From the NCBI GenBank assembly GCA_050299855.1, contig JBNKWQ010000011.1, positions 25,391-89,390 on the forward strand: a stretch of DNA of 64,000 bases. The letters run 5' to 3'. Every line of letters starts with the position of its first letter. The first letter of the stretch is position 1. Positions 64 to 51,100 of this stretch are shown here, in pieces. The notes beneath the pieces are model-generated. The model saw nothing but the letters and a program-made list of their open reading frames with translations, was not told where the DNA came from and did no database searches. Source of the DNA: Hahella sp. GTDB lineage: Bacteria > Pseudomonadota > Gammaproteobacteria > Pseudomonadales > Oleiphilaceae. Made by a program: the position numbers and the translations under genes.

Positions 64-2025
64 ATGAAAGGCGGCGGTCTCAGTCACCAAGTCGAAGCAT
101 ATCAGCAGTGGAAGAAGTCGCTGATTAGGGAAATAGCGCATTACCAGAGCTGGCTTCGCACTAACCAGTTAAGTTCTGATGATCTGGAGTTAAAACTGCA
201 GCGCAGTATACAGCTCCTCCATGAGGACACACTGACAATTGCCTTTGTTGGTGAATTCTCCCGTGGCAAGACAGAGCTCATCAACGCTCTCTTTTTCGCT
301 GAATTCGGCCAACGGATGCTGCCCTCGCAGGCTGGCCGCACCACCATGTGCCCAACTGAACTCTTTTATGACTATGTTGGCGGCAGCTATCTGAAAGTTC
401 TCCCCATTGAAACCCGTAGGGAAGAACGTTCACTGGCAGAATACAAACGCAGCAATGCGGAATGGACTGTATTCCCATTAGACATGAGTTCTCCCGACGC
501 CATGCGCGGATCTCTGGATCAGGTTGCTCAAACCAAATCAGTCACCATGGAAGAAGCCCGTACATTGGGCTTTGATGCCTCCTCCCTTGAACGGGATAAT
601 TCCCGCAGCGGCATGGTCATTATTCCCGCCTGGCGTCATGCACTGATCAGCCTGGAAAATCCGTTGCTGCAGCAGGGCATGCGCATTCTCGACACCCCCG
701 GGCTAAACGCGCTGGGTTCAGAGCCGGAACTTACCGTCAGCATGATTCCGAATGCCCATGCAGTAATTTTCATGCTGGGAGTGGATACAGGTGTGACTGC
801 CAGTGATATGGAAATCTGGCGCGACCATATTTTCAGTGAAAATGCCGACCATCGTGCCGGTCGATTTGCCGTACTGAACAAAATCGATATCCTCTGGGAG
901 GATATTCAGGGCGAGGAACACACTGCAAAAGCGATCGCCAAGGTAAGAGCCAAAACCGCTGAGCAACTGGGTCTTGAACCTGAGGATGTATTATTGCTTT
1001 CTGCCAAGCAAGCACTGATTGGACGCATCAAAGGTGATGAAGAGCGTGTCAGCAAAAGCCAGCTGGACCGCTTGGAAAACCTGCTTTCCAACCAGATCCT
1101 GTCCCAAAAAGAACGGCTGATTACCCAAACCATGGTCAATGATGTGCTGGGTATGCTGCAAAGCAGCCAGGCGATTCTTCAGGGCAGAATGATCAATTAT
1201 GAAGAACGTCTGGAAGAGTGCGAGCAGAAAGGCGTAAGCACCGATTTTCTGCGTAATCTGACCGAAAAAACCCAGGACGATTACAATTTCTACTACAAGA
1301 AGCTTTTCACCCTTCGTTCCAGCCGCCGCCTGATGAAATCACAGGCGATGATTCTCAGTCGCCTGGTGGAGATGAATCATTTTGAAGGCCATGCCAAACA
1401 GACTCGCGAAGAACTGATTAACAGCTGGACCACTTTGGGTATGGGTCGTGCCATGGGTGGCTTTTTCCAGTCCATTGAAAACGATCTAAGCAACCTGAAT
1501 CATGAGGCCCGGCTGGCCCAGAAAATGGTAGGCTCGATTTATGAACGCTACTCAAATGATCCGAAATCAAGACATCTAAGGCCGGTAGCCTTCAACATCA
1601 GCCGCCAAATTCGCGAGTTGAACAATCTCAAGACCCAGGCAGAACGCTTCCGGCGTAATCCCCGCACCCTGATGACCGAGCAAACCCTAGTGGTAAAACG
1701 CTTCTTCACCACCCTGGTCAATGAAGCCCGCCGCATCTACGGTGAAATCGAGCAGGAAACTGAGCGCTGGCCGCAGGAAGCATTACTTCCCATTCTGCAG
1801 CACACAATTGAACAAAAGCAGGTGCTGGAACACCAGATTAACCGACTAAAGGAACTGGCCGCCAATGCGAAAGATACTCGCTCACAAACCCGTAAACTGC
1901 AGGGCCTGATGGAAGAAATCGGCGAACAGATACATGAAGCTGAAAATATCCAGCGCAAACTGCGCCGTCCTCCACCGCAAATGCTGCGGCAGAAAGTCGT
2001 CAACTTACCGGGAATGCTAGGCTGA
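64..2025 (+). CDS. dynamin-family large GTPase (bacterial dynamin-like protein)
   Basis: 653-aa ORF with P-loop GEFSRGKTELINALF, G3 DTPGLNA and G4 NKID. The C-terminal half is long and helical/coiled-coil-like. Confidence 0.8.
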   Translation: MKGGGLSHQVEAYQQWKKSLIREIAHYQSWLRTNQLSSDDLELKLQRSIQLLHEDTLTIAFVGEFSRGKTELINALFFAEFGQRMLPSQAGRTTMCPTELFYDYVGGSYLKVLPIETRREERSLAEYKRSNAEWTVFPLDMSSPDAMRGSLDQVAQTKSVTMEEARTLGFDASSLERDNSRSGMVIIPAWRHALISLENPLLQQGMRILDTPGLNALGSEPELTVSMIPNAHAVIFMLGVDTGVTASDMEIWRDHIFSENADHRAGRFAVLNKIDILWEDIQGEEHTAKAIAKVRAKTAEQLGLEPEDVLLLSAKQALIGRIKGDEERVSKSQLDRLENLLSNQILSQKERLITQTMVNDVLGMLQSSQAILQGRMINYEERLEECEQKGVSTDFLRNLTEKTQDDYNFYYKKLFTLRSSRRLMKSQAMILSRLVEMNHFEGHAKQTREELINSWTTLGMGRAMGGFFQSIENDLSNLNHEARLAQKMVGSIYERYSNDPKSRHLRPVAFNISRQIRELNNLKTQAERFRRNPRTLMTEQTLVVKRFFTTLVNEARRIYGEIEQETERWPQEALLPILQHTIEQKQVLEHQINRLKELAANAKDTRSQTRKLQGLMEEIGEQIHEAENIQRKLRRPPPQMLRQKVVNLPGMLG

Positions 2026-2145
2026 CCCGACTTGAATCAATATCACAATAAAAAAGCGCCACTCGTCAGAAGTTCATTTAAAGACTTGGTCCGGCTTCCT
2101 TGCCGGCAAACGCATCCCTGCGCCTGAAGATATCCACAGAGAAGG

Positions 2146-2825
2146 CTAGAAAGTGTAATTAAAGCGGGTACGGAACTGATTCAACTCATCATCATCGCCG
2201 ACATTGTCTGCTGAGGAAGTGGATCCGGCAAAGGTGGCGGTTGCATTGTCGATATCGAACAACGGAAGGGTATAGGCGACGTAGACAGTGGTCACTGTAG
2301 GATCTTCATCCACCGCATCATAGTCAGTTTCGGAGTGGACAGCCCCCAGGCCAAAGTTACCGCAAGGCAAACTGGCCACCGTTATCACCGGCACGACCAC
2401 GCACTTTATTGGCTGCATATACTACCGCACCACCTGCATCACCCGCATGAGAAACCACAGTGTCTTTGCCCAGGGGAAACAGGTTGATCGCTTCAAAACG
2501 TCCCGCCTGAAGGTCCCAGGTAGCGTTACCGAATTTGATCCACATATCGTCAGTTGCAGCAGACCCGTCTTTTTTAAGCAGACCTGATCCTTTACCTTCA
2601 ACGAAATAGCCGTTCAGCTCTTTCTTGCCGGTTACATTGACCTTAATTCTGCCACCCTGTTCATATGTGGTATCACTTGCTTTACTGTCAATGACATCAG
2701 TGTCCAACTCGATATTGGCACCAATACCAAACTCAGCATTTGCCTGTGACACACCCAGAGCCAGAGACAGGGCCAAAAGGACAATTGCCCCGAAACCAAT
2801 TCAAGACGCTCTAAAACACAACCAT
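2146..2825 (-). pseudogene. outer-membrane beta-barrel porin-like gene disrupted by frameshifts
   Basis: Two overlapping minus-strand ORFs (2357-2776 and 2146-2418) read as one protein. It has a signal-peptide end ALSLALGVSQANA, an alternating beta-strand pattern and the C-terminus FRTRFNYTF typical of OM barrels. The frames differ by 1 nt near 2357-2365. The only upstream ATG (2823-2825) is again out of frame and meets TAG after 4 codons. Confidence 0.5.
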
Positions 2826-3048
2826 GGTAGGAAGGAAACGCTGCGTTGACTTAGGCAATTATTTAATAAACATTACGAAATAATAAGATTTCCATTTTCG
2901 TTTTATTTACAATATTCAAGCAAAGACCATTCGTACTGACGGGTATTGCTTTCAAATCAAAGCCCGCCCAATACTTCTTGCGCAAATTCAGCGGGATTTA
3001 TAGACTGCGCGGTCCACACTCGCTTTTTGACAGGAATTCCAAACAGTA

Positions 3049-4194
3049 ATGCCAGAGACCATTCCGCCGGATTCGGTCGGTATCGTGACACCTGCGACTG
3101 CAGAGTTTAACGAGCCTTTGTTACTTGAAAGCGGCAAGCAAATCGAACAATACCAGCTGGTGTACGAAACCTACGGCACCCTGAACGCAGACCGCTCAAA
3201 TGCCGTGTTAATTTGTCACGCCCTCAGTGGTCACCACCACGCAGCCGGCTTCCATAGCATGGAAGATCGCAAACCCGGTTGGTGGGACAGCTGCATCGGG
3301 CCCGGCAAGCCTATAGACACAACTAAATTTTTTGTCGTCTCTCTGAACAATCTGGGAGGCTGCAATGGCTCCACCGGTCCTAACAGCCATAATCCCGCCA
3401 CCGGCAAACTTTACGGTCCCGATTTTCCAGTCGTGACTGTCAGAGACTGGGTATCCAGCCAGGCACGTCTGGCTGATTTCCTGCACATTGACACCTGGGC
3501 GGCAGTGATCGGTGGCAGCCTGGGAGGCATGCAGGCTCTACAGTGGTCTACCCAGTTTCCCGAGCGCATCAAACACGCCATCATCATCGCGTCGACGGCT
3601 AAGCTGACCACTCAGAATATTGCCTTCAACGAAGTGGCACGCAAGGCCATCACATCTGATCCGGATTTTCATGCAGGACGCTACTACGAACACGACACCT
3701 ACCCAAGTAAAGGCTTGATGCTGGCCCGCATGGTGGGGCACATTACTTACCTGTCAGATGCATCCATGGGTGAAAAATTCGGGCGCGACCTGCGTAACAA
3801 GGCCTTCAATTTTGGCTTGCTGGATGTTGAGTTCGAAATCGAGAGCTACCTGCATTATCAAGGCGAGCGTTTCTCCAAGAACTTTGACGCCAACACTTAT
3901 CTGCTGATGACCAGGGTACTGGACTACTTTGATCCTGCTCGTGAATACGGCAGCGATCTGGCCAAAGCATTGGATAAAGCCCAGTGCCGCTTCTTTGTCG
4001 CCTCGTTTTCAACCGACTGGCGCTTCTCACCGGAACGCTCTGAAGAATTGGTAAATGCGTTGATTGAAGCCAAGAAAGCTGTCAGTTATACCGAAATTGA
4101 TGCCCCTCATGGCCATGATGCCTTTCTTATTCCCAATCCTCGGTATATGGATGTATTCAACGCCTATATGATCCGTATTGCGGAGGGATTCTGA
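3049..4194 (+). CDS. metX: homoserine O-acyltransferase MetX (alpha/beta hydrolase)
   Basis: 381 aa with nucleophile elbow [12 protein letters not shown] and conserved HALSGHHH and [10 protein letters not shown] segments. It is followed by metW, as in pseudomonads. Confidence 0.9.
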
Positions 4195-4195
4195 T

Positions 4196-4789
4196 ATGCG
4201 CGCCGATCTGGAAATCATTAGCGACTGGATTAAACCCGGCAGCCAGGTACTCGACCTAGGCTGTGGCGATGGCACTCTGCTGGCTCATCTGCAGGAGCAT
4301 AAACAGGCTCAAGGTTACGGCCTGGAAATAGACAGTTCCAACATCACCGAGTGCCTGCGGAAGGGTGTCAATGTCATAGAACAGGACCTGGATGCCACGG
4401 ACTTATCCGTTATTAAAGACAAAAGCTTTGATGTCGTGGTCATGACACAGGCACTACAAGCCGTGCGTCACCCGGATATCATGCTGGAGGAAATGCTGCG
4501 CATGGGTAAAGAGTGCATTATCACTTTCCCCAATTTCGGCTATTGGCGACTACGTTTTTACCTACTGCGCAAAGGGCGCATGCCGGTCTCCAAGACTCTG
4601 CCCTATACTTGGTACAACACACCGAATATCCATCTTTGTACGTTTACGGATTTTGAAGCGCTGTGTTACCAGAAAAACATCCACATCCTGAGCCGCACCG
4701 TGGTGGACAACGAGCACCGCCAACGCTGGTTTAATCAAATGTGGCCGAACTTACTGGGCCAGATCGCGATTTATCACGTAACCCGCTAA
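4196..4789 (+). CDS. metW: methionine biosynthesis protein MetW
   Basis: The ATG lies 1 nt after the metX stop. N-terminus MRADLEIISDWI and SAM-methyltransferase-fold motif VLDLGCGDGTLL. The track ORF start at 4178 overlaps metX and is less likely. Confidence 0.85.
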   Translation: MRADLEIISDWIKPGSQVLDLGCGDGTLLAHLQEHKQAQGYGLEIDSSNITECLRKGVNVIEQDLDATDLSVIKDKSFDVVVMTQALQAVRHPDIMLEEMLRMGKECIITFPNFGYWRLRFYLLRKGRMPVSKTLPYTWYNTPNIHLCTFTDFEALCYQKNIHILSRTVVDNEHRQRWFNQMWPNLLGQIAIYHVTR

Positions 4790-4810
4790 ACCCACCAAAA
4801 TAAATGGTAT

Positions 4811-5266
4811 ATGGTAAAGGTCATGAGCAGATTAAATAAGCTTTTACTGAGCCTGGCGCTCCTGCTGACAGCGGCATTTGTCGGGGCTGAACAGATGCAG
4901 GCATTCGGTGACTATGAAGTACACTATATTGCCCTGCCAACAACAGTGCTTTCTGCAGAAGTCGCCAAGCAATATAAGATCTCCCGCAGCAAAAGCTCCG
5001 GATTTCTGAATATTTCCGTCCTTAAGAAACAACCGGATGGTACTACCCGTGCCGTATCTGCATTTGTTCGCGGCAGCTTTCGCAATATGGTGCAGCAACA
5101 ACGCCAACTGGAGTTCTCTCGCATCAGTGAAGGCGAGGCTGTGTACCAGGTTGCACAGTTCTGGTACAGCCAGGGCGAAAACATGATTTTCGAACTGGAA
5201 ATACAGGCTGACCCGAACCAGGGACCATTCGACCTTCGCTTTACCCAGGCGCTTTACCCAGATTGA
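4811..5266 (+). CDS. DUF4426-like secreted protein
   Basis: 151 aa with a signal peptide (LLLSLALLLTAAFVGA). It occupies the conserved position between metW and rdgB, as in Pseudomonas. The family name is recalled from synteny, not verified. Confidence 0.55.
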   Translation: MVKVMSRLNKLLLSLALLLTAAFVGAEQMQAFGDYEVHYIALPTTVLSAEVAKQYKISRSKSSGFLNISVLKKQPDGTTRAVSAFVRGSFRNMVQQQRQLEFSRISEGEAVYQVAQFWYSQGENMIFELEIQADPNQGPFDLRFTQALYPD

Positions 5267-5310
5267 GATTGACTGCCCCAGATTGAGATTGATCCCCCAG
5301 TTTGAGAATG
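5257..5310 (+). repeat. short tandem repeat, about 2.7 copies of a 20-nt unit (cccagattgagattgaNNNc)
   Basis: Units lie at 5257-5276, 5277-5296 and a degenerate third at 5297-5310. The first unit contains the stop codon of the preceding gene. Confidence 0.7.
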
Positions 5311-5319
5311 TAAGAACCT

Positions 5320-5961
5320 ATGTCCAAAATCGTCCTCGCCAGCAATAACGCCGGTAAGATCAAAGAATTCAATCACCTGCTTGCCCCGTTTCAGTGGCAA
5401 GTTGTTTCCCAGGAATCCATGGAGGTGGAGGCAGTCCCGGAAACCGGTACCACCTTTCTGGAAAATGCACTGATTAAAGCCCGGCATGCCAGCCAGGTCA
5501 CTGGCCTACCGGCGCTCGCAGATGACTCCGGCTTAGTCGTTGATGCTTTATCGGGAGCTCCCGGTATTTATTCAGCTCGCTACGCCGGCGAAGAGTCCAG
5601 TGACGCTGACAACAACCTTAAATTACTCAATCAGTTGGAAAACGTCCCCAACTCACATCGCCAGGCCCACTTCCACTGTACGCTGGTGTGGCTTCGGCAT
5701 GCGGATGACCCCGACCCGATTATCTGCCAGGGCCGCTGGCACGGAACTATTTTGTCGGCACCTGCTGGTTCCGGCGGATTCGGCTATGACCCATTGTTCT
5801 GGGTAGAAGAAACCCAGTGCGCCTCTGCCGAATTGTCCCGCGAACAGAAAAATGCGCTCAGTCATCGGGGGCAGGCAGTTGCCAAACTTTTGCACGAACT
5901 AAAAGACCTTCACGATCAACAACTGCAACAAGATGCTCTGGGAAGTGGAAACCAAGGATGA
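5320..5961 (+). CDS. rdgB: dITP/XTP pyrophosphatase RdgB (HAM1 family)
   Basis: 213 aa with motifs ASNNAGKIKEF, ADDSGL, FGYDPLF and SHRG. Confidence 0.85.
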   Translation: MSKIVLASNNAGKIKEFNHLLAPFQWQVVSQESMEVEAVPETGTTFLENALIKARHASQVTGLPALADDSGLVVDALSGAPGIYSARYAGEESSDADNNLKLLNQLENVPNSHRQAHFHCTLVWLRHADDPDPIICQGRWHGTILSAPAGSGGFGYDPLFWVEETQCASAELSREQKNALSHRGQAVAKLLHELKDLHDQQLQQDALGSGNQG

Positions 5962-7114
5962 GCGAGTGACTCTCACGCTTCCTCCACTGGCTCTTTATGT
6001 ACACGTGCCCTGGTGTGTGCGCAAATGTCCCTATTGTGACTTCAATTCTCATCAAGCCCGTGATGATCTGCCCGAACAGGCATATCTTGACGCCCTTTTG
6101 AGTGACCTCGCCTTTGAAGCTAAACAACTTGCAGACAATCACTCGCTACGACCACTGAGTTCGATATTCTTCGGTGGCGGAACCCCCAGCCTAGTCAATC
6201 CAGCGACTATTGGCCGAGTGATTACTGAAGCAAAACGGATTGTGGGGTTTACCGAAGACATCGAAATCACCCTGGAAGCCAACCCTGGCACAGTAGACTA
6301 CGAGAAATTTGATGGGCTCTATGCAGCAGGTGTAAACCGTCTTTCCATCGGCATCCAGAGTTTCAATCCCCAGCACCTGGAAGAGTTAGGCCGCATTCAC
6401 TCCAAAGATGACGCTTTGAAGGCTGTTGAACGCGCCAGACAGGCAGAATTCAGGAACATTAACCTGGACCTGATGTTTGGCTTGCCTGGTCAAACCTGCG
6501 AGCAGGCTCTAGCCGACCTACGCATCGCTACCGGATTAGCACCGGAACACTTGTCCTGGTATCAATTGACGATTGAGCCCAACACAGAATTCTACCGTCA
6601 TCCGCCGAAACTGCCTGAAGACGATACCCTATGGCAAATGCACCAGGACGGCATCGCCTTCCTTGAGCAGGCCGGCTACGCTCAGTATGAAGTATCCGCC
6701 TTTGCCCGGGCGCAACGCCAGGCAAAGCACAACCTCAATTACTGGCAATTCGGAGACTATGTCGCCATCGGCGCCGGGGCACATGGAAAATCAACCCATC
6801 CCAACAGCGGCGAAATTCTACGCTACTGGAAAACCCGCCTGCCCCAGCATTATCTGGCACGGGTGGATAACTATCGGGCAGGCAGCGAACAGATAACATC
6901 CGGTGATCTCCCCTTTGAATTCCTGATGAACAGCCTGCGTCTGAAACAGGGAGTTGACGCTGCCACCTTTACCACCGGCACGGGGTTACCTCTCTCAGCC
7001 CTGGAACCCACCCTATCCAACCTGCGCCAGCAGGGGCTGATCCACCCAGATCGCCTGCAATGCACCGACCAGGGCTACCTTTACCTTAACGAAGTCCTGC
7101 AGAAATTCATGTAA
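5933..7114 (+). CDS. hemW: radical SAM heme chaperone HemW (HemN-like)
   Basis: Radical-SAM motif CVRKCPYCDF plus a HemN C-terminal-like region. The true start is probably the GTG at 5966 (VTLTLPPLALYVHVPWC), just after the rdgB stop. Confidence 0.85.
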   Translation: MLWEVETKDERVTLTLPPLALYVHVPWCVRKCPYCDFNSHQARDDLPEQAYLDALLSDLAFEAKQLADNHSLRPLSSIFFGGGTPSLVNPATIGRVITEAKRIVGFTEDIEITLEANPGTVDYEKFDGLYAAGVNRLSIGIQSFNPQHLEELGRIHSKDDALKAVERARQAEFRNINLDLMFGLPGQTCEQALADLRIATGLAPEHLSWYQLTIEPNTEFYRHPPKLPEDDTLWQMHQDGIAFLEQAGYAQYEVSAFARAQRQAKHNLNYWQFGDYVAIGAGAHGKSTHPNSGEILRYWKTRLPQHYLARVDNYRAGSEQITSGDLPFEFLMNSLRLKQGVDAATFTTGTGLPLSALEPTLSNLRQQGLIHPDRLQCTDQGYLYLNEVLQKFM

Positions 7115-7289
7115 GGTAAGCTTCATAGCAAGCAAAAAATTCCACCACCGACTATGTGTGCGGCAATACTGCCCATGCAAACCATAATCGGACGGAATAG
7201 ATATACTCCAGTGACCTCTTATTTCCTGCTTGCCAAAGTTCCAGGTTCGGGTTTTAATACCGACGTGTTAAAAATTAACCAATGAGACT

Positions 7290-7829
7290 ATGGACGACCC
7301 CCACCCGACATCATCGCGCAATCTCTGGATTGCAATTGTTACTACCATTCTTCTCGGCGCATGCCTTCTTTGGATAGACCAATATCTCCGGACGCCATTA
7401 AGCCCATTGGGCATAGTGAGCCTGGAACTTGCCAAAAACATCTTCCGTGTCAGCGATATTCTTAACAGCTGGGGAGCGCAGGGTCATTCCTGGGCAATCT
7501 GGAGTCTTGCCCTGGATTTTCCGTTTTTGTTGGCTTACTCATATCTTTTCAGTGTTCTAGCCAATAGAACTAAATCAGATATCCGGCAGTTGTTCATGGT
7601 CGGTTTTATGATTGCCGGCATGTGTGACTTTATCGAAAACTTGGCGTTAGCCGGCTTGCTGGCAGGCTGGGTCTACCCGCAGTTAACAGCCGCAGCCTAT
7701 TATTTTTCCTGCCTGAAATTCCTGCTACTGTTCATGGGCTGGGCATTTTTAGGCTCCCAGGCAAGTCTATGGGCCTGGAGCAAACTGCAGCCTGAACCCG
7801 TGGCATCTCCCTCAAGAGCCACAAAATAG
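7290..7829 (+). CDS. hypothetical polytopic membrane protein
   Basis: 179 aa with several hydrophobic segments. I recognise no family motif. Confidence 0.45.
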   Translation: MDDPHPTSSRNLWIAIVTTILLGACLLWIDQYLRTPLSPLGIVSLELAKNIFRVSDILNSWGAQGHSWAIWSLALDFPFLLAYSYLFSVLANRTKSDIRQLFMVGFMIAGMCDFIENLALAGLLAGWVYPQLTAAAYYFSCLKFLLLFMGWAFLGSQASLWAWSKLQPEPVASPSRATK

Positions 7830-8093
7830 ATCGAGTAGAAGCATAGGCCGCACCTCCGCTTTCGCCGTCGGCATACCCAGGAGACAGAATTGCCATATTA
7901 GGAGGTGGTGAATTAATTCAGGTGGGTGAGCCCAAGGATATCCTTCTGGAACCAGTAGACGACCAGTCGAGGTATTTTTTGTGCACGAAGGAAACAACCC
8001 TCCCCAGGCAGATGTACCTGTAGAGGGCATCTGATTATTGATAAGCATTTAGCTACGGCTGGCACGAACCTTTATTGATACGCATGAGCCTAT

Positions 8094-8972
8094 CTATAGA
8101 TAGTATTCGGGTGCGTGCTTAATCTGCTGATTCTGCTCCAGGTCGTGTTGAATCCACATATCGGCTCCCTTTTCTTTCACAAATTGCTCAATCTTATCAA
8201 TAGACTGCAGAGACTGCTCTTTATTAAAATTGAAAGAGGGCACACGCCGGTATGTACGGTTTTTAGTGAAATGGTAGAGGTCACCTGATAACAGTATGGG
8301 TCCCGTTTGGGGCATATCCAGGAATAGGGTCTGGTGGCCCGGGGTATGTCCAACGGCCTCTTTAATGACCACCCGACCATCGCCGAATACATCATAGTCA
8401 CCCTGTAACACCTGACTGTTAGCGCTACCAAATTGGCTGTACGACTCCGGATTAAAGCCGAATTTCTGTGGCTCTGCGCCAAACGCCGCATCGAATTCTT
8501 CTTGCTGAATCAACAATGTAGCTTTTGAAAACAAGTTGGCATTACCGGTATGATCACCATGAAAATGGGAAATGGCCACAAATTCTATTTCATCCGGATG
8601 CACGCCGATTTCCTGTAACTGAGCTTGCAATGGATGAGATACGCTCATATGAAAAGCGCCATCCCATACATCTACACCCTCCGGTGTCAACGAATCGCTG
8701 AGTCCGGTATCCCATATCATGTCCCCTTTTGGGTGACGAATCAGGTAGCAGCTGTCGGTCAATTGCTTTGACTGGCCCTTATCCACTCCGGGAGAAAAAA
8801 GAGAGACATCGCGGGAAAGAATACTCCCGCAGTTAAAAACGTATAACTTGATTTCTGGCGGTTCTTTTTCCATCAAATCTGCACAAGCAGACACCAGGAC
8901 AGCTGCCGACACTAATGCCAATCTGAATACACCTTTTACACCTATAGCCCATCCGTTCACTATTATCTCCAT
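8094..8972 (-). CDS. MBL-fold metallo-hydrolase lipoprotein (AHL-lactonase-like)
   Basis: HxHxDH motif SHFHGDHTG, a later GHTPGH, and a lipobox-like LVSAC near the N-terminus. Confidence 0.7.
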   Translation of the reverse strand: MEIIVNGWAIGVKGVFRLALVSAAVLVSACADLMEKEPPEIKLYVFNCGSILSRDVSLFSPGVDKGQSKQLTDSCYLIRHPKGDMIWDTGLSDSLTPEGVDVWDGAFHMSVSHPLQAQLQEIGVHPDEIEFVAISHFHGDHTGNANLFSKATLLIQQEEFDAAFGAEPQKFGFNPESYSQFGSANSQVLQGDYDVFGDGRVVIKEAVGHTPGHQTLFLDMPQTGPILLSGDLYHFTKNRTYRRVPSFNFNKEQSLQSIDKIEQFVKEKGADMWIQHDLEQNQQIKHAPEYYL

Positions 8973-9231
8973 TAGCTGTATGTTTATGTCTGCAAAGAAT
9001 ACATGCCCTTCACATTATTGGGCATGTTAGGTTAAGGAATATCATTTCAATTCACCATCTGTATATAAGAAATAACCTTAACCTTTTCATATAAATCAAC
9101 TTGTTATGCCCGCAAGCCAACCTTGGTTTAACCTGCCAGGCCTGTAGTGTCATACAGGCTAGTAAAAGGAGTCTTGAAAATTGAGTGGGGGTATTACGGA
9201 CGGGAATGCTTAGAAATGGGCTGCTACAGGG

Positions 9232-9933
9232 CTATAGCTCACGCTCGTACAATAGATCCCATACTCCATGCCCTAAACGCTCGCCACGCTTCTCAAACTT
9301 GGTAATCGGGCGGTAATCCGGCCGTATTGAATATTGGCCTATACCGGCCAGGTTTCGATAGCCCTCTGCCGCCTCCATAACGTCAATCATATGTTCTGCA
9401 TAGGGTTCCCAATCCGTGGCCATGTGAAACACTCCACCTGGTTTCAGTTTGGTGCGCAAACGCTGAACAAACTCCAGCTGTACCAGCCTGCGTTTGTTAT
9501 GACGCTTCTTATGCCAAGGGTCGGGGAAAAATAGTTGAATTCGGTCCAGAGAAGCATCGCCCAGACACTCATTGATTACCCTGTTAGCGTCCTCCCAATA
9601 AACCCGTAAATTGGTCAGTGAGTGCAGTTCTGCTTCCCTCAGCAGCGCCCCAATTCCTGGCTTGTGAACTTCAACGCCAATGAAATCCATATCCCTGGCA
9701 TTTTGCGCCATCTCCGCCAGGGAAGCCCCCATTCCGAAGCCAATTTCCAGCACCAAGGGCGCGGCTCTGCCAAAAAGAGACTGCGGTTCAATCAGCCCAT
9801 TGTCAGCACTTAACCCCTGAGTCGGCCAAAGCGAATCAAAGGCTTTCTGCTGAGAAGCAGTCATGCGGCCACCACGAATGACAAAACTACGAATACTGCG
9901 CTTTTGTATTTCTTCTTCCATCGCTTTTATCAA
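9232..9933 (-). CDS. trmB: tRNA (guanine46-N7)-methyltransferase
   Basis: SAM-binding motif [10 protein letters not shown] and signature [15 protein letters not shown]. Confidence 0.85.
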
Positions 9934-10105
9934 CTAGGCTACGGTTAAACTCATGAGACCAGATAATTCAGGGGTTGCAATAATAGGTGCCTTAGCACAA
10001 AAAACAAGCAGTTTTTATGTGTCGAATCCTTATTTCAAAAACATCGCCACATACTAATAACTAATGAGTAAAGCTAAACGTATCGTCCGAACCAAGAATT
10101 CGATT

Positions 10106-11199: not shown

Positions 11200-11396
11200 G
11201 AATCACTGGCTCTTAGGTCAATTTAACATTGATTAACAGGGTTCCTCATCGGTTCGGCAAGGACTTCCTAGATCAGTCTGGCTATTTTTTGTACAATACT
11301 TTAGTCGAAGTTGACTCGGATCCTCCCGGATCGAAGCTGACTTCGGCGCGTCAAATTCGATCTGAAGCGATCGAAGTTGTCTTCCTAAACCCCATT

Positions 11397-11428
11397 TGGG
11401 AGCTCTGCTTTGAGCTCCCTTTTTTCAA
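11397..11428 (+). terminator. Rho-independent terminator
   Basis: GGGAGCTC-tgcttt-GAGCTCCC followed by TTTTTT. The reverse orientation has no T-run. Confidence 0.7.
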
Positions 11429-11502
11429 TGGGTATCTATAAAAATCACTGCTTACTTTTCCACTCAAATGACGAACGACTTATAGATCCGGGCGTAGCTT
11501 CA

Positions 11503-45342: not shown

Positions 45343-45769
45343 TGTGGGTCTCCATATCCGTTAAAATTCGATGGCTGGGCTGATGTCAGCATGCGCTGAA
45401 GCTCCAGAAGCTGTGCAGCATTATCCGCGTCTTATGTGACGATTGCTGCAATTTCTTTCACTCAACCAGGCTGCGCCTGCTGGGTAAACAGCAACTGCTA
45501 TGCCAGCATCCATCTCCAAGATACAACTCAGGAGCATGAATACCATATCCTCACCGCCGGAACCATAAGGGCAACTTTACCCTTTTGTCATTTTAGTTAT
45601 AGAGGCTCGTCGAGCTTGCGATATGCACAGCTTTTGCCCGGTAATCACGGGCAAATCGCCATTAAGGGGCACATTAAGATAAGCCATTCCAATTCAAATT
45701 TTGTTGCAGAAAAGGCCGAAAAAAGGTATAAACTGCCGCCCTGAAGCATGAAGGCTAACGAGCCAAAAT

Positions 45770-45820
45770 CCAGAGCTTCAATTAAGAACACTTTTTTATA
45801 CGCGCCCGTAGCTCAGCTGG
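45770..45820 (+). repeat. duplicate of the tRNA-Arg upstream region plus the first 19 nt of the tRNA (5' tRNA fragment)
   Basis: 45770-45820 matches 45940-45991 (ccagagcttcaattaaga.cac.tttt.tatacGCGCCCGTAGCTCAGCTGG) with a few mismatches and one indel. Homology stops inside the D-loop. Confidence 0.8.
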
Positions 45821-45972
45821 GCGCAGGCGGAAATAATGAAACACTGTTTCATCCGCCGAAGCGGCACTTGCCTCTGGCAAGTGACTGGACCCCGAAGGGG
45901 GAGCGCTGCGGAATGCAACGCATTCCCAAGGGCAGTTTTCCAGAGCTTCAATTAAGAGCACCTTTTCTATAC

Positions 45973-46049
<77 letters not shown>

Positions 46050-46151
46050 TTTCACTTCGTTTCATTCTGCTTGTTCGGATTTCCGGCCTTATGAGCTTAG
46101 CTCTCCAGGCGTTCCAGCTAAAATTACTACGCAATTTTTTTACGCTTCCAC

Positions 46152-46168
46152 CCTCTCGGGCGCGCCAT
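46152..46168 (+). repeat. second copy of the tRNA-Arg 3'-end 17-mer (att-like direct repeat)
   Basis: CCTCTCGGGCGCGCCAT occurs at 46034-46050 (T-stem/acceptor/CCA of the tRNA) and again at 46152-46168. Confidence 0.8.
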
Positions 46169-46216
46169 CTTCCGTAAAAAGGCCCTGCTAATTGCAGGGC
46201 TTTTTACGGAAGATGG
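46165..46216 (+). terminator. long near-perfect hairpin with terminator-like core
   Basis: CCATCTTCCGTAAAAAGGCCCTGC-taatt-GCAGGGCTTTTTACGGAAGATGG has a ~23-bp stem with one bulge. The inner part, GGCCCTGC..GCAGGGC+TTTTT, resembles an intrinsic terminator. Confidence 0.55.
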
Positions 46217-46274
46217 TACGCATGAGGGACTTGGTTCAAATCTCCGTTCGACAAACAGCGCCAGCTGTTTGGAC

Positions 46275-46409: not shown

Positions 46410-46540
46410 ACCTAGATCAAATGACATAAGATCTATCGCCTAATTACACAGGCGTTGCACTCAGGTGTAATGGTGGTCTTTCAAATACCACTTACTTCAC
46501 TCAGGACAGAGAAGTCACTCCCATCACAAGGACGATAGGT
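46410..46540 (+). promoter_or_regulatory. conserved 131-nt leader, copy 1 (upstream of toxin-like gene 1)
   Basis: It differs from 47792-47922 at only 3 positions. It contains inverted repeats TAGATC..GATCTA, ATTACAC-N15-GTGTAAT, GTGGT..ACCAC and ACTTC..GAAGT, plus an AAGGA SD 8 nt before the ATG. Confidence 0.6.
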
Positions 46541-47122
46541 ATGCCGCCTTTTATTACCCCTCATCAAACAAAAGTTGACCGGCTAATTGCAGAATTTGCC
46601 CAGAAGGACAAGCCGACCACAGCAGACTTCCTGGCACTGGAAAAGGTGGGGGTTCTATATGATCGTCTTGACCGTTATCGGATGGCTGCCATGAATATGA
46701 CGGAAGAGCAGCTTGAAAACGAAAAACATTCCCCGAAAAAGCTAGCTAGCAATATGAAGCGGACTGGCGATCCTCGACCCGCCAAACAGTGTGACGCGCA
46801 TGCAATTGTATCGGGCAGCCATCCCAGCTCTCTTTTGGCACGAGGTGTCTTAGCATGGCTCGGAATGCGAATTGACGACCCTCACAATGGTTGTTGGCTG
46901 CCTAGGGATTGGCACGACCGTAAGCACATGCCTAACCACCTCCGAAATGCTGTCCCCCACAGGCGTATTCACACAAAGACTTACTACGCATGGCTTTCCG
47001 GGTACATCAGGCCTGGAAGAATCAAAAACCCAGAACAACTTATTAATGCGCTACGTTTGGTGCGAACAATGCTTCAAGGTGGTAACGTTCCCGCTAATGT
47101 GATGCCCTCTACAGGACGGTGA
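46541..47122 (+). CDS. AHH/HNH-EndoVII-like putative nuclease toxin (paralogue 1)
   Basis: 193 aa with motifs CDAHAIVSGSHP, RIDDPHNGCWLP and RNAVPHRRIH...YYAWL. These fit the AHH-family layout (AHH...NG.wLP...H..H...Y), except that AHH reads AHA. No signal peptide or known trafficking domain. Confidence 0.55.
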   Translation: MPPFITPHQTKVDRLIAEFAQKDKPTTADFLALEKVGVLYDRLDRYRMAAMNMTEEQLENEKHSPKKLASNMKRTGDPRPAKQCDAHAIVSGSHPSSLLARGVLAWLGMRIDDPHNGCWLPRDWHDRKHMPNHLRNAVPHRRIHTKTYYAWLSGYIRPGRIKNPEQLINALRLVRTMLQGGNVPANVMPSTGR

Positions 47123-47125
47123 ACA

Positions 47126-47737
47126 ATGCTCTACACGATGATATTGGACTACAACAAATACTTGGTTTTGGCATGGGACAAAAAGCAGATTACTTCATTA
47201 GTGGGTGACATGCGCTCTTCAATGGAAAAGCGGATTGACATGTGGAATGCCCCTGTGTCTTTCAAGGGGGTCTTTAATGAACCTTTAAAAGTTACCTTCC
47301 CCAAAAACTCGAAAGAAGACCTCGCTTGTAAAATCCCTGATATCGCTGCTTTTCAAGGACGGTTATTTCTCAACCCCAAAGCCTATGAAGTCCTTAAACC
47401 ACTTATTGAAAATGATGGTGAGTTTCTTCCTGCAATATATGAACAGGGTGCAGGACACATTTTCATTCCATTACGAGTTGCGGAGGATGTCGACGGGTTA
47501 GATACCGATCTTAGTAAAAAGGATGAATGGGGACAGATAGAAAACCTGGCCTTCCATGAAAACAAGGTGAAAGACTGGAATGTGTTCCGCACTGCGTATA
47601 ACGATTATGACACCTTGCAGTGTCAGCAGGCAGTAAAGGACGCCATAGAAAGCGCTGATCTCAAGGGGCTCTATTTCACGCCGAATCTGGGGAATATTTT
47701 TCCCGAAGAGCCGGGAGCCGTGTCGAAGCTTAACTAG
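47126..47737 (+). CDS. putative cognate immunity protein (paralogue 1)
   Basis: 203 aa. The ATG is 3 nt after the toxin stop. It is a paralogue of 48506-49120 and 49793-50407, with a variable N-terminal third and a conserved core IPDIAAFQGRLFL...YEVLKPL.ENDGEFLP...DVDGLDT. Confidence 0.5.
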   Translation: MLYTMILDYNKYLVLAWDKKQITSLVGDMRSSMEKRIDMWNAPVSFKGVFNEPLKVTFPKNSKEDLACKIPDIAAFQGRLFLNPKAYEVLKPLIENDGEFLPAIYEQGAGHIFIPLRVAEDVDGLDTDLSKKDEWGQIENLAFHENKVKDWNVFRTAYNDYDTLQCQQAVKDAIESADLKGLYFTPNLGNIFPEEPGAVSKLN

Positions 47738-47791
47738 AAAAAACGGGACAGATTTTATTTTATAGTTCTAGCCCACCTTCATTAAATTACG

Positions 47792-47922
47792 ACCTAGATC
47801 AAATGACATAAGATCTATCGCCTAATTACACGGGCGTTGCACTCAGGTGTAATGGTGGTCTTTCAAATACCACTTACTTCGCTCAGGACAGTGAAGTCAC
47901 TCCCATCACAAGGACGATAGGT
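47792..47922 (+). promoter_or_regulatory. conserved 131-nt leader, copy 2 (upstream of toxin-like gene 2)
   Basis: See copy 1. The mismatches correspond to copy-1 positions 46450, 46499 and 46510. Confidence 0.6.
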
Positions 47923-48504
47923 ATGCCGCTTTTTATTACCCCTAACCACTCCAAGGTTGACCGCCTAGTTGCCGAGTTTGCTCAGAAGGATAAGCCAACC
48001 TCAGCAGACTTCTATGGCCTGAAGAACCTTGGGGTTATGTATGACCGGCTTGACCGATACCGTATGGAATCCCGGCATATGAGCGCTCAAAGTTTGGAAA
48101 GTGAAACCCATAACTCACGACGCCTTGCAAGTAACCTGAGGCGAACAGGAGATCCTCGCCCCTCAAAGAGATGTGATTGTCATGCAATCGTTTCTGGCAA
48201 TCATCCCGATGCCCTCATGGTACGGGGAGTGCTAGCATGGCTAAAGTTACGAATTGATGATCCTCACAATGGCTGCTGGCTTCCAAAAGATTGGGAGGAC
48301 CGTAAACACATGCCTGCCTACCTCCGAAATGCTGTGCCACATAGACGGTTACACCATCAAAAATATTATGAATGGCTTAGTAGTGCCATCTCCCCCACAA
48401 CTATTACTACGTCACAGCAACTGATTAATGCGTTGCGTATGGTACGGACGATGTTGCAAAGTGGAAATGTTCCGAAAAGCGTAATGCCCACCACAGGTCG
48501 CTAA
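47923..48504 (+). CDS. AHH/HNH-EndoVII-like putative nuclease toxin (paralogue 2)
   Basis: 193 aa, colinear with 46541-47122 without gaps but substantially diverged. Motifs CDCHAIVSGNHP, RIDDPHNGCWLP and RNAVPHRRLH...YYEWL. Confidence 0.55.
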   Translation: MPLFITPNHSKVDRLVAEFAQKDKPTSADFYGLKNLGVMYDRLDRYRMESRHMSAQSLESETHNSRRLASNLRRTGDPRPSKRCDCHAIVSGNHPDALMVRGVLAWLKLRIDDPHNGCWLPKDWEDRKHMPAYLRNAVPHRRLHHQKYYEWLSSAISPTTITTSQQLINALRMVRTMLQSGNVPKSVMPTTGR

Positions 48505-48505
48505 A

Positions 48506-49120
48506 ATGCTATATACGTTGATATTAGATTCAAACAAATACCTTTCCCCTTTACTGGATAGAGCCCAAATACACCGGATACTCGGTGAAACTACAGAAGA
48601 AAATGTGAAGTACCGTATTGATTTCAAGGCACTTCCCGTTTCGTATAAGGGTGTTTTTAATGAGCCTTTGAACGTTTCATTCCCCAAAGCCCTGAAAAGT
48701 CAAAAAAACTGCGAAATCCCCGATATTGCTGCTTTCCAAGGCCGTTTGTTTCTCGGTCTGAAAGCCTACGAAGTTCTGAAGCCGCTGCTAGACAACGATG
48801 GCGAGTTTCTTCCCGCAAATTATGAGCTAGGTAAAGGGTATATCTATATTCCCTTAAAGGTTGCAGAGGATGTCGATGGTCTGGACACCGAGCTTAGCAG
48901 AAAGGATGAGTGGGGACAGGTTGCTAACCTGGCCTTCCATGAAGACAGGGTTAAAGCTTGGAATGTATTCAGGACCGAGTTTAATGGCTACCACACATTG
49001 CAATGTCAGCAGGCTGTAAAAGACGCCATTGAAAAAGCTGGTTTCACAGGGCTGTACATTACACCAAACTTGGGGAACATCTTCCCTGAGGAGCCTGGGG
49101 CAGTATCAAAGATCAATTAG
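48506..49120 (+). CDS. putative cognate immunity protein (paralogue 2)
   Basis: 204 aa. The ATG is 1 nt after the toxin-2 stop. Paralogue of 47126-47737. Confidence 0.5.
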   Translation: MLYTLILDSNKYLSPLLDRAQIHRILGETTEENVKYRIDFKALPVSYKGVFNEPLNVSFPKALKSQKNCEIPDIAAFQGRLFLGLKAYEVLKPLLDNDGEFLPANYELGKGYIYIPLKVAEDVDGLDTELSRKDEWGQVANLAFHEDRVKAWNVFRTEFNGYHTLQCQQAVKDAIEKAGFTGLYITPNLGNIFPEEPGAVSKIN

Positions 49121-49129
49121 GAATAGTCG

Positions 49130-49747
49130 TTGATAATGTTTCCGGCATTCGACTCGTTACAGTTAACTACCCGTCTACTCAAGCTTAACCAAAAACAACA
49201 ACTTGCTTTTGGTGCTTCCTGCTGTGAACGCATGCTTCCAAGCTATCTGGCGTTCCAGGAAGATAGTGGCTGGGGAAATTTTGAGCCTCTGCGAAGGGGA
49301 TTGGACTTTGTATGGACCGCACTAGAAGACGACGGATTCAGCCAGAAAGAGGTTGAACGGCTTCTCGATCAGTGTGACGAAGCTTATCCGGATTCAGCAG
49401 ATTTCGAGTCACCCTATGTTCCCTATGCCCAGGACGCTTACTATGTCGTTGGCTTCCTGTTGGATGTCTTTCTCGGCTATGAAATAGATGCATTTGTTGA
49501 AATCGCCACCTATACGATTCAAACCGTAGAGGCTTACATACAGGAAACCGAGCAGTTGGAACCTACGGACCCTGGCATTGAGACTAAAATAGTCAACCAC
49601 CCCATTATGCAAAGAGAGCTGGCACAGCAAGAGTCAGACTTGAAGGAAATAGAGCGGAACTCCGAGGTCGGCTTGGACTTTATTCAGGCATTTAGACATT
49701 CATGGGGAAACAATGGGAAGAGTAATATCGATCTGCCTATTACCTGA
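49130..49747 (+). CDS. DUF416 (YjaG-like) family protein
   Basis: Colinear with my recollection of E. coli YjaG: L...L..W....F.ASCCERMLPSY..F......G..........DFVW. The start is TTG 49130 (AGGA 7 nt upstream) or ATG 49136. Confidence 0.55.
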   Translation: MIMFPAFDSLQLTTRLLKLNQKQQLAFGASCCERMLPSYLAFQEDSGWGNFEPLRRGLDFVWTALEDDGFSQKEVERLLDQCDEAYPDSADFESPYVPYAQDAYYVVGFLLDVFLGYEIDAFVEIATYTIQTVEAYIQETEQLEPTDPGIETKIVNHPIMQRELAQQESDLKEIERNSEVGLDFIQAFRHSWGNNGKSNIDLPIT

Positions 49748-49792
49748 AAAACAATGCGTATTTTGCAGCAACTGGAAAACTCCCCATTCATC

Positions 49793-50407
49793 ATGCTCCA
49801 CACATTATTGCTGAACTCCAAAAAGTATTTAGGACCAGTCATTGACGACAAACAAGTTGCATCCATCGTCGGGGAGGCAAGTAATGACAATATCACTCAA
49901 CGCATAGATATGTACCATGGCCCTGCCACGCGCAGAGGGGTATTTAAGGAGCCTCTTCGTGTGTCCTATCCGGTATTCAACAAAGCAGACAAGAAGAAAT
50001 CCATCCCGGATATCGGCGCGTTTCAGGGGCGCTTGTTTCTCAGCACGGCAGCATATGAAATTCTGAAGCCCCTGATTGAAAACGACGGTGAGTTTCTATC
50101 GGCCGTCTACGAACAGGGAGACGGCTACATCTTTACACCTTTGCGTGTTGTGGAAGAGGTGGATGGACTCGATACAGAAATTAGCAGGAAGAATGACTGG
50201 GGGGATGTCATTCACTTGGCATTTCATGAAGAGCGAGTGGCCGACTGGAAGGTATTTAGAACCGAGTACAATGCTTATACATCCTTGTACTGTCAGCAGG
50301 AAGTCAAAGACGCCATTGAGCAGGCTCAGCTAACCGGTTTGTACTTTTCGCCAGATCTGGCCAACATTTACCCTGAAGAACAAAGTGCTGTTATTAATCC
50401 CAACTAA
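49793..50407 (+). CDS. orphan immunity-like paralogue 3 (no adjacent toxin gene)
   Basis: From the ATG at 49793, MLHTLLLNSKKYL... is colinear with the two immunity-like proteins (IPDIGAFQGRLFL, LKPLIENDGEFL, EVDGLDTE). Confidence 0.5.
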   Translation: MLHTLLLNSKKYLGPVIDDKQVASIVGEASNDNITQRIDMYHGPATRRGVFKEPLRVSYPVFNKADKKKSIPDIGAFQGRLFLSTAAYEILKPLIENDGEFLSAVYEQGDGYIFTPLRVVEEVDGLDTEISRKNDWGDVIHLAFHEERVADWKVFRTEYNAYTSLYCQQEVKDAIEQAQLTGLYFSPDLANIYPEEQSAVINPN

Positions 50408-50614: not shown

Positions 50615-51100
50615 CTAATCCAACGGCACAATCAACACCGGCACATCGGTTTGTTCCAGCACTTTCCGGGCAGTAGAGCCCAGCAACAGCTTTTTCAAAG
50701 TTCTGCGGTTCTGTGATCCCATGACAATCAGGTCGACATTCTTGGCATGGGCGGTATCCAGAATCAGCCTGGACGCATATTCTTCCTCGATAACAATATC
50801 GGCGAGTAGCTCACGGTGTTTTTCTTCTGCCACCATTTCCTCGATAAAGAAGTTATGGATTTTTTCGTGGAGCGATTTGATAAAGTTGGCCTTGCCTTCC
50901 TCCTTAATCTTTTTCAACATTTCCGGCGAAATCGTAGACTCTATCAATGCCTAGCTATATGCGCTCAGAGGATCGAGGGCATGCACCATAATCAACTCCG
51001 CCTGGTGCTGAAGCGCTAAACCGGCTGCCATCCGTGTCACCGCACGGGTTTCCTGTTCCAGGGTGGTAGCGAACAGTATCCTATTGATTTTCGTTATCAT
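50615..51100 (-). pseudogene. universal stress protein (UspA family) interrupted by an in-frame TAG
   Basis: ATG at 51100 with a GAGAGG SD. MITKINRILFATTLEQETRAVTRMAAGLALQHQAELIMVHALDPLSAYS-TAG(50951-50953)-ALIESTIS... continues in the same frame to the Usp C-terminal motif DLIVMGSQNRRTLKKLLLGSTARKVL. Confidence 0.6.

Follow-up and report, generated by a model that had tools for sequence, protein, structure and literature searches.

The T–I gene array

The window (the whole 64,000-nt stretch of Hahella sp. DNA analyzed here, taken from contig JBNKWQ010000011.1) contains six genes arranged in tandem on the forward strand in the order T1-I1-T2-I2-DUF416-I3 (Table 1). Two copies of a small predicted nuclease toxin, T, are each followed by a copy of a predicted immunity protein, I, and a third copy of I stands without a partner toxin. 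A preliminary description made from the sequence had presented the T and I genes as a tandem array; its open reading frame (ORF) coordinates were all reproduced, with every ORF on the plus strand, and the array is as it described except that the DUF416 gene between I2 and I3 had been left unmentioned; the tRNA-Arg repeats, the near-identical leaders and the low GC content described below were also absent from it. The start codon of I1 lies 3 nt past the stop codon of T1, and that of I2 1 nt past the stop codon of T2. For I3 an alternative in-frame ATG is present upstream at 49754, and the family alignment favors the start at 49793. T1 and T2 align without gaps at 68% identity (E=1e-108) and carry the motifs that had been quoted for them (H87, N116-G-C-W-L-P, H140, H144 and Y148/Y149); T2 is identical to NCBI protein P0003. 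The I proteins differ from each other to a similar extent (I1/I2, 70% identity; I1/I3, 59%), and the alignment shows that their first ~70 residues vary most, in agreement with the earlier statement that variability is concentrated in the N-terminal third.

Table 1. Positions of the array, its surroundings and related features. Numbers are window positions, except that entries with an L prefix give positions within related loci.
Feature	Position	Strand	Basis
T1, stand-alone AHH-family (HNH/EndoVII) predicted nuclease toxin, 193 aa, motif C-D-A-H87-A88	46541..47122	+	Pfam AHH
I1, Imm11-family immunity protein, 203 aa, partner of T1	47126..47737	+	Pfam Imm11, 6a4c match
T2, T1 paralogue, 193 aa, motif C-D-C-H-A	47923..48504	+	Pfam AHH
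I2, Imm11-family immunity protein, 204 aa, partner of T2	48506..49120	+	Pfam Imm11, alignment
DUF416 (YjaG-like) gene, 203 aa, between I2 and I3	49136..49747	+	Pfam DUF416, E=6.6e-32
I3, orphan Imm11-family immunity gene, 204 aa, without partner toxin	49793..50407	+	Pfam Imm11, E=6.1e-6
Leader 1, into the AAGGA ribosome-binding site of T1	46410..46540	+	97.7% identity to leader 2
Leader 2, upstream of T2	47792..47922	+	97.7% identity to leader 1
tRNA-Arg promoter region and first ~22 nt of the tRNA, partial duplicate	45769..45822	+	Direct repeats D7/D8
tRNA-Arg(CCG), island just downstream of its 3' end	45973..46049	+	ARAGORN; Rfam tRNA, 69.3 bits
Exact 17-nt copy of the tRNA 3' end (46034-46050), att-like scar	46152..46168	+	Repeat D10, 100% identical
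T–I in IMG/VR contigs	L096:5965-7118; L097:5941-7133
Small acidic family	L027:9471-9695 and 11200-11481; L037:842-1171; L046:8936-9280
Small acidic family	L023:12814-13110; L018:4573-5004

I is related in sequence and predicted fold to MXAN_0049

All three I proteins match the Imm11 family (PF07791) above its cutoff of 22.1 bits, with scores of 23.0 for I1, 24.6 for I2 and 26.1 for I3. The matches are marginal and cover mostly the C-terminal part of the protein, that of I3 being the longest of the three. When a profile of 63 I-family sequences was run against the sequences in the PDB, the sole match was MXAN_0049 (PDB ID: 6a4c; E=6.7e-4), and the same protein was recovered by structural comparison. 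The AlphaFold (AF2) model of I1, with a predicted local distance difference test score (pLDDT) of 93.9 and a predicted template modeling score (pTM) of 0.89, matches 6a4c in a Foldseek search of the PDB with E=5.5e-7, probability 1.00 and template modeling (TM) scores of 0.60/0.57 over 201 columns; this is the only significant match, the next having E>1.

MXAN_0049 binds and neutralizes the AHH nuclease MXAN_0050 of Myxococcus xanthus (PMC12077181, PMC12077131). Zhang et al. (2012) placed Imm11 among the immunity partners of Tox-AHH toxins, and also next to HNH or SHH toxins and in polyimmunity arrays; here the I gene lies directly downstream of an AHH gene, as expected for Imm11. On homology and structure prediction, I is an immunity protein of the MXAN_0049 fold that is encoded by the coupled downstream gene. 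The pairing with Imm11, which the preliminary description had suggested, is borne out both by the Pfam scores above cutoff and by the unique structural match.

T belongs to the AHH clade and has an altered active site

T1 and T2 match the Pfam AHH family (PF14412) with 42.6 bits (E=6.7e-11) and 34.6 bits (E=2.1e-8), respectively, against a cutoff of 22.3, and a precomputed PF14412 match is found on all relatives of T. In the AF2 model of T1 (pLDDT 86.8) two strands, at residues 84-88 and 117-121, are followed by helices bearing H140 and H144, an arrangement consistent with a beta-beta-alpha-metal (treble-clef) fold. Foldseek gave no significant match for this model in the PDB or BFVD, and a T profile run against PDB sequences returned noise only, with no sequence relative of solved structure; it is thus from the Pfam profile and the pattern of residues that T is assigned to HNH. 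With the family score above cutoff and the motif residues kept, the AHH/HNH/EndoVII assignment proposed earlier holds, and homology together with structure prediction identifies T as a probable His-Me finger protein of the AHH clade.

The Tox-AHH group was defined by the pattern '[AG]HH, N, H, H, Y' (Zhang et al., 2012), in which the first His of the HH dyad binds metal and the second directs the hydrolytic water (Zhang et al., 2011). T1 reads A-H-A and T2 reads C-H-A instead of [AG]HH, and A88 aligns with the second His of distant HH relatives ('DAHHIVSG', 'EPHHIIPG'). This oddity, seen at first in two genes, is real and extends across the clade: the second-His position is occupied by Ala in 76 (~95%) and by His in 4 of the 80 genome copies with a recognizable motif, and by Ala in 133 and His in 20 of the 153 full-length relatives. 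Across those 153 relatives E61, H87, N116, H140, H144 and Y148 are invariant in Ala and His forms alike and H63 is near-invariant; the Ala clade has, in addition, fixed H94, R110, D112, D113 and Y149.

With Ala at the water-activating position another residue would have to take over that role. Since the I gene is kept and coupled, and it is the T gene that decays (see below), T is inferred to have stayed toxic, with some other residue as its general base. Candidates for the substitute, from residue conservation, are H94, D112, D113, Y149 or the N-terminal E61/H63; no single column was found to switch together with H88→A in the 153 relatives. PacI, a His-Me finger enzyme without the catalytic His in which Tyr acts as the base, offers a precedent (PMC5714182).

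Two cysteines, C84 and C118 (T1 numbering), are nearly fixed in the Ala clade, one on each core strand, and are variable in the HH forms. They may constitute a structural or metal-binding pair that accompanies the active-site change.

The N-terminal region of T

The preliminary description had set apart an ~85-aa N-terminal region of T in which no delivery-type feature could be recognized. A profile of T residues 1-78 was run against 1.84 billion representative proteins and gave 71 matches. The single-stretch matches are all stand-alone AHH proteins of up to 242 aa that carry the region at their N-terminus, and the 9 long proteins matched are Ig-like repeat proteins in which an ~20-residue motif is hit repeatedly by chance. 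As the region is found in no other toxin type among these representatives, a role as a modular loading domain was rejected; in a plasmid-borne effector of T6SS1, a Vibrio parahaemolyticus type VI secretion system (T6SS), the N-terminal 96 residues are fused to several toxin domains. From residue ~43 onward the region (with E61 and H63) is conserved even in the distant Vibrio clade and is covered by the phage-family profile match, and much of it therefore probably belongs to the body of the enzyme. This leaves the first ~40 residues as a possible adaptor or regulatory segment. No signal peptide or lipobox is recognizable in T1 or T2, as judged by inspection of the sequences and not by a prediction tool.

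Distribution of the family and its gene neighborhoods

A search with T1 of a protein database clustered at 90% identity gave 187 relatives at E<=1e-3, nearly all of them 193-201 aa long and aligned over their full length. The hosts are Cellvibrionales (Microbulbifer, Cellvibrio, Marinibactrum, Agarilytica, Sessilibacter, Simiduia), Endozoicomonas, Hahella, Kangiellaceae and Oceanospirillales. Marine gammaproteobacteria contain such free-standing T→I pairs by the hundreds, and a single genome often has more than one copy. The HH dyad is preserved in another stand-alone clade, whose members are ~240 aa long and come from the Vibrio harveyi group, Marinomonas, Alkalimonas and Corallincola.

Neighborhoods were compared at 80 genome loci, each extended by up to 10 kb to either side, with crude ORF calls and clustering of the 1373 resulting proteins. 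The families that recur are T (89 copies in 80 loci) and I (102 copies in 79 loci), any other family being present in at most 5 loci. Counted over 86 neighborhoods, T and I are likewise the sole recurring families. T precedes I on the same strand, usually with an overlap of 4 nt or 1 nt, and this coupling is seen in nearly all 80 loci. T is never part of a larger protein: its greatest length is 257 aa among the 89 genome copies and does not exceed 254 aa in a set of several hundred proteins from databases. Arrays are common, as are I genes without a partner and shortened T genes, orphan or tandem I genes being found in ~10 of the 80 loci. Genes shorter than 170 aa account for 12 of 85 T genes vs 4 of 97 I genes; decay is thus more frequent in T than in I, a bias to be expected of a toxic T.

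The preliminary description had reported no secretion, adaptor or integrase gene anywhere in the 64 kb. This was confirmed for the window, in which the scanned or annotated ORFs of at least 150 aa are all housekeeping genes, and the lack of a delivery gene extends to the related loci. No PAAR, VgrG, Hcp or adaptor gene was found beside T–I in ~90 loci, the Vibrio loci included. A bulk Pfam scan also covered 274 proteins, from the two genes flanking each block to either side, from which the 25 commonest families were listed; PAAR, VgrG, Hcp, Rhs and adaptors are absent from the families listed. The small neighbor clusters that recur are housekeeping genes or one unannotated small acidic protein. 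One small recurrent neighbor family (cluster 4) was considered as a possible PAAR protein and rejected, having no Pfam match and a helical acidic sequence.

The small acidic family (74-143 aa, with a C-terminal G-[YF]-E-T-x-W-E and no Pfam match) is found near T–I in 5 loci, on the same strand as T–I and, in three of the loci, within 170-680 nt of it. It could be another immunity-like or accessory gene. A few T–I loci (L047, L037, L045 and L017) are on contigs of metagenome-assembled genomes labeled Anaerolineales, Dongiaceae, Inquilinaceae and Paenochrobactrum; these reflect either true horizontal transfer or binning error.

T–I pairs on mobile elements

Full-length relatives are carried on Agarilytica plasmids and on ~28 Vibrio plasmids. 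In the Vibrio plasmid backbone T and I belong to a fixed block together with Rep3, PemK/MazE and a tyrosine recombinase, in the order Rep3, T, I, PemK/MazE, recombinase; one variant also has a resolvase. In the P2-like Vibrio phage ValB1MD-2 the T–I pair lies between the replication-initiator and portal genes; in P2-like coliphages the same interval is the old/tin anti-phage hotspot (PMC9122126). Two prophage-like IMG/VR contigs that resemble Endozoicomonas loci carry T–I on the opposite strand within the structural module, in one of them between the tape-measure gene and a 1182-aa gene and in the other next to a DDE transposase, with the capsid gene on one side and the tape-measure gene on the other. 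Insertion into the structural module is an unusual position for accessory cargo.

Among closer relatives of T1, one pair lies directly behind a VapBC pair, and another is between a resolvase and AbiH/AbiEii on an element that also carries ArdA and a relaxase. An Aliikangiella T–I copy is preceded by a resolvase. Other flanking genes, each seen one or two times, are a Tn3 transposase, TniQ, phage GPA, TraU, type I restriction R subunits, Cas1 and an ABC-3C component. A tRNA gene lies at most 2 kb upstream in the same orientation at 6 of 60 loci, and also in the window, compared with a rough chance expectation of 1-2%; this is the only adjacency with a background rate, itself rough, and adjacency to mobile-element and toxin–antitoxin (TA) or defense genes is a qualitative observation.

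A small island downstream of tRNA-Arg(CCG)

The window matches NCBI assembly GCA_050304355.1 (contig JBNLDN010000071.1), from whose annotation the start of the DUF416 gene was taken. The T–I block begins ~0.5 kb downstream of tRNA-Arg(CCG), and the GC content of the region from 47 to 50 kb is 0.445-0.461 vs ~0.50-0.53 in both flanks. Parts of the tRNA locus are duplicated on both sides of the tRNA gene. Upstream, direct repeats D7/D8 (45769-45822) are 93-97% identical to 45939-45991. Downstream, the copy of the tRNA 3' end starts 102 nt past the end of tRNA-Arg and is followed by a strong hairpin (46155-46226; inverted repeat I1, a terminator-like site, not to be confused with the gene). The duplicated pieces look like scars of site-specific and seemingly repeated integration and excision, the integrase being gone. 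From these scars and the low GC content, the T–I block is therefore considered a small acquired island.

Both T genes are preceded by a 131-nt leader with an abrupt left boundary. The two leaders are nearly identical, and the DNA identity of the genes behind them is 52-86%, falling to 52-80% right inside the genes. Two palindromes are present in the leaders, TAGATC-n11-GATCTA and TTACAC-n15-GTGTAA. The leader was not found in other genera, and the nearest relative (locus L088, 76% protein identity) has a homologous leader at about coding-level identity; the leader is thus probably a lineage-specific promoter/operator region, and one that has probably been homogenized between the two copies by gene conversion. 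The leaders show that each T–I pair has its own expression signals. A simple consensus scan gave no sigma-70 promoter upstream of T1 or T2, and a structured RNA in the leader was rejected on a non-significant fold score (z=-1.4).

The DUF416 gene lies on the same strand inside the low-GC island, separated by 15 nt from I2 and by 45 nt from I3, and is possibly co-transcribed with the array. Its product matches PDB 2q9r (E=1.4e-18). Among 86 loci the array in this genome is the only one with a DUF416 gene near T–I, and the gene might be a passenger or else code for an immunity-type protein that has escaped recognition. That DUF416 is an established immunity family was considered and set aside, as it is not in Zhang et al. 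(2012) and a literature search returned only name-prefix noise.

On the other side the island is flanked by a universal stress protein gene (50615-51100, minus strand), a 161-codon ORF with one in-frame TAG at codon 50 that is called as two genes in the matching NCBI assembly and is probably a pseudogene. At the Aliikangiella locus mentioned above (locus L004 of Aliikangiella sp. IMCC44359, which has at least 8 copies) the resolvase–T–I insertion sits amid housekeeping genes shared with positions 64-10000 of the window (Dynamin_N, DUF4426, Ham1, HemN, Methyltransf_4); the T–I insertion sites differ in the two genomes.

Proposed function and alternatives

It is very probable that I binds T and blocks its nuclease, that the two pairs have diverged into separate specificities, and that I3 is a spare immunity gene. 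The island would thus contain two full copies of an autonomous two-gene cassette in which T is a small cytoplasmic nuclease. The cassette was very probably gained horizontally at the 3' end of tRNA-Arg and then duplicated, after which the pairs drifted apart, with changes greatest across patches of T and over the N-terminal third of I; divergence of the two pairs is as expected for pairs that do not cross-react. I would bind T one-to-one and block it, as MXAN_0049 does with MXAN_0050.

The compartment in which T acts is a more difficult question. Judged from gene context, T–I may be a mobile, self-sufficient and selfish unit that works within its own host cell, as a TA, addiction or abortive-infection (Abi) system, although this reading is tentative and is put at somewhat less than an even chance. 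While both genes are expressed T would be held inactive. Upon loss of the cassette or its carrier, or upon shutdown of host expression by a phage, I would not be replenished, and the freed T would degrade DNA and kill the cell, such that the element is stabilized or the infection aborted. The absence of a linked secretion gene at ~90 loci, the non-modular N-terminus, and positions in plasmid-maintenance blocks, next to TA and Abi genes and in prophage hotspots all support an intracellular role, and an autonomous two-gene module on mobile elements beside TA and defense genes fits what is expected of TA/Abi systems, on contexts that are qualitative. In its most specific form, an AHH/Imm11 pair that has turned into an intracellular addiction or anti-phage module on plasmids, prophages and tRNA-linked mini-islands, with a rebuilt active site, the proposal is a little more tentative still.

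Several points weigh against an intracellular role. The AHH–Imm11 pairs studied so far are all exported interbacterial toxins, delivered via T6SS or outer-membrane exchange (PMC12077131, PMC12077181). In the literature searched, no paper was found that treats an AHH–Imm11 pair as a TA or defense module, and no experiments were found on the Vibrio plasmid or phage members. PADLOC gave no match for the six proteins (T, I, DUF416), and Pfam no TA domain in them. The toxin gene comes first, and orphan and tandem immunity genes are a hallmark of defense against neighbors' toxins. The I protein is large and well-folded and has no helix-turn-helix or other DNA-binding domain by Pfam, unlike typical type II antitoxins. 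A plasmid-borne orphan pair without T6SS neighbors proved to be T6SS1-dependent in V. parahaemolyticus, T6SS proteins have been reported in some Microbulbifer genomes, and Rhs genes lie ~8 kb from one M. thermotolerans T–I copy. The annotation of neighbors, finally, derives from crude ORF calls and a Pfam list of the 25 commonest families.

Many of these points speak at the same time for export, which is a serious possibility that we place behind the intracellular role, slightly favoring the latter. T–I would then be an antibacterial pair in which the first ~40-80 residues of T dock on an unlinked T6SS PAAR, VgrG or Hcp protein, or on another contact system; T would degrade the DNA of neighboring cells, I would protect kin, and I3 would counter the toxin of other strains. 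The toxin-then-immunity order, the orphan and tandem I genes, the diversifying N-terminal third of I, the T6SS1-dependent plasmid pair, the Microbulbifer T6SS proteins and the nearby Rhs genes are all readily accommodated, and M. xanthus itself has small stand-alone AHH toxins that need their N-terminal 40-70 aa for delivery and are followed by Imm11 genes. Small stand-alone AHH proteins with Imm11 are thus already characterized T6SS cargo in M. xanthus, and the suggestion in the preliminary description of a new class of small cargo effector was not upheld. Opposed to export are the ~90 loci with no PAAR, VgrG, Hcp or adaptor gene beside T–I, compared with an adjacent PAAR gene in 5 of 6 M. 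xanthus loci (PMC12077131). The N-terminal region is conserved and, in contrast to known loading domains, is not found joined to any other kind of toxin, and the contexts are mostly plasmid maintenance, TA/Abi genes and accessory positions in prophages.

It is unlikely that T is a catalytically impaired or repurposed protein (for example a DNA-binding or regulatory protein) that no longer forms part of a toxin system. Replacement of the water-directing His by Ala in most relatives, and the failure of the T1 model to give a significant HNH fold match, are what would be expected of such a protein, but the other active-site residues are invariant, I is kept and translationally coupled nearly everywhere with T as the decaying partner, and His-Me finger enzymes with another base are known, PacI being one. 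A store of orphan cassettes from which toxins would recombine into some large Rhs/CdiA/MafB-type gene elsewhere, also put forward in the preliminary description, is very improbable and was rejected: although tandem units look like the arrays of orphans that follow rhs and cdiA genes (Zhang et al., 2012), all members are complete genes, each T having its own start codon, ribosome-binding site, leader and conserved clade-specific N-terminus, none forms the C-terminus of a longer protein, and no large toxin gene lies upstream in the window or in related loci.

Relation to known systems

That AHH toxins pair with Imm11 immunity proteins was a prediction of 2011-2012, for which experiments in Myxococcus have provided proof since 2018; NCBI names the relatives of T 'AHH domain-containing protein', and megaplasmids with tandem Imm11-like genes behind AHH toxin genes are the subject of a 2025 preprint. 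In the literature searched, no description was found of a coherent stand-alone clade with the AHA variant, a clade-specific N-terminus and an autonomous life on mobile elements. AHH–Imm11 pairs are textbook interbacterial weapons, and with a large, coherent branch for which no linkage to delivery machinery is seen, the boundary between effectors and TA/defense systems would become less sharp. Should T prove to be intracellular in action, the repertoire of anti-phage and addiction systems would gain a new family of nucleases, and T–I would be the first AHH/Imm11 system shown to be a TA or defense system; if T is ordinary T6SS cargo, it would be one more member of the usual kind, notable for its motif. 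That the predicted general-base His is lost across the clade with retention of the metal ligands is, in addition, a natural experiment in His-Me finger catalysis.

The closest characterized counterparts are MXAN_0050/0049 and three paralogous pairs of M. xanthus DK1622, which act through T6SS (Gong 2018; Wang 2025, PMC12077131). They belong to the same Pfam families and have the same gene order; as in the T–I family, a small toxin with an extended N-terminus stands by itself, the immunity gene comes directly after it, and a genome has multiple paralogous loci and additional immunity genes. The modeled I1 can be superposed on the structure of MXAN_0049. The two groups differ in three respects: the MXAN pairs are T6SS-dependent with adjacent PAAR genes, whereas the ~90 loci of the T family have none; N-termini are highly variable in Myxococcus, whereas in the T family they are conserved and clade-specific; and the T clade has AHA in place of AHH. 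A profile search from a diverse alignment gave no Myxococcus toxin among the matches listed, so the relationship to the Myxococcus toxins is at the level of the Pfam family only.

The SitA5/SitI5 pair of M. xanthus, which is transferred by outer-membrane exchange (PMC12077181), has the same AHH–Imm11 pairing and has likewise expanded to many loci. SitA toxins are lipoproteins, whereas on inspection T1 and T2 have no such export signal. To our knowledge, TraAB-type exchange has been described only in myxobacteria.

T–I resembles MazEF, VapBC, AbiE and P2 old/tin in being an autonomous two-gene module with many copies on plasmids, prophages and islands. Unlike these TA/Abi modules, it has the toxin first, its antidote lacks a DNA-binding domain, and by PADLOC it has no sequence relationship to a known TA or defense family.

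The colicin E7 and E9 DNases are His-Me finger enzymes with the pattern HH...N...H-x3-H and are neutralized by the tight-binding proteins Im7 and Im9, encoded just downstream. T–I has in common with them a predicted His-Me finger nuclease with a downstream immunity gene. Colicins carry large receptor-binding and translocation domains, and the Im proteins are four-helix proteins of ~85 aa unrelated to Imm11. Colicins E7 and E9 keep the second His as general base, where T1 and T2 have Ala.

Classical polymorphic toxins are large proteins with trafficking or repeat domains at the N-terminus and a variable C-terminal toxin, and orphan cassettes follow their genes (Zhang et al., 2012), whereas T is always a stand-alone protein of ~190-250 aa. 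The usual marks of T6SS cargo, a linked PAAR, VgrG, Hcp or adaptor gene and a shared or variable loading region, were likewise not found in the T family. With respect to the active site, the closest parallel is to the PacI-type groups (Jablonska 2017, PMC5714182), in which, as in T1 and T2, the canonical general-base His is absent and the metal-binding residues are kept; in PacI the substitute is a Tyr in the omega-loop.

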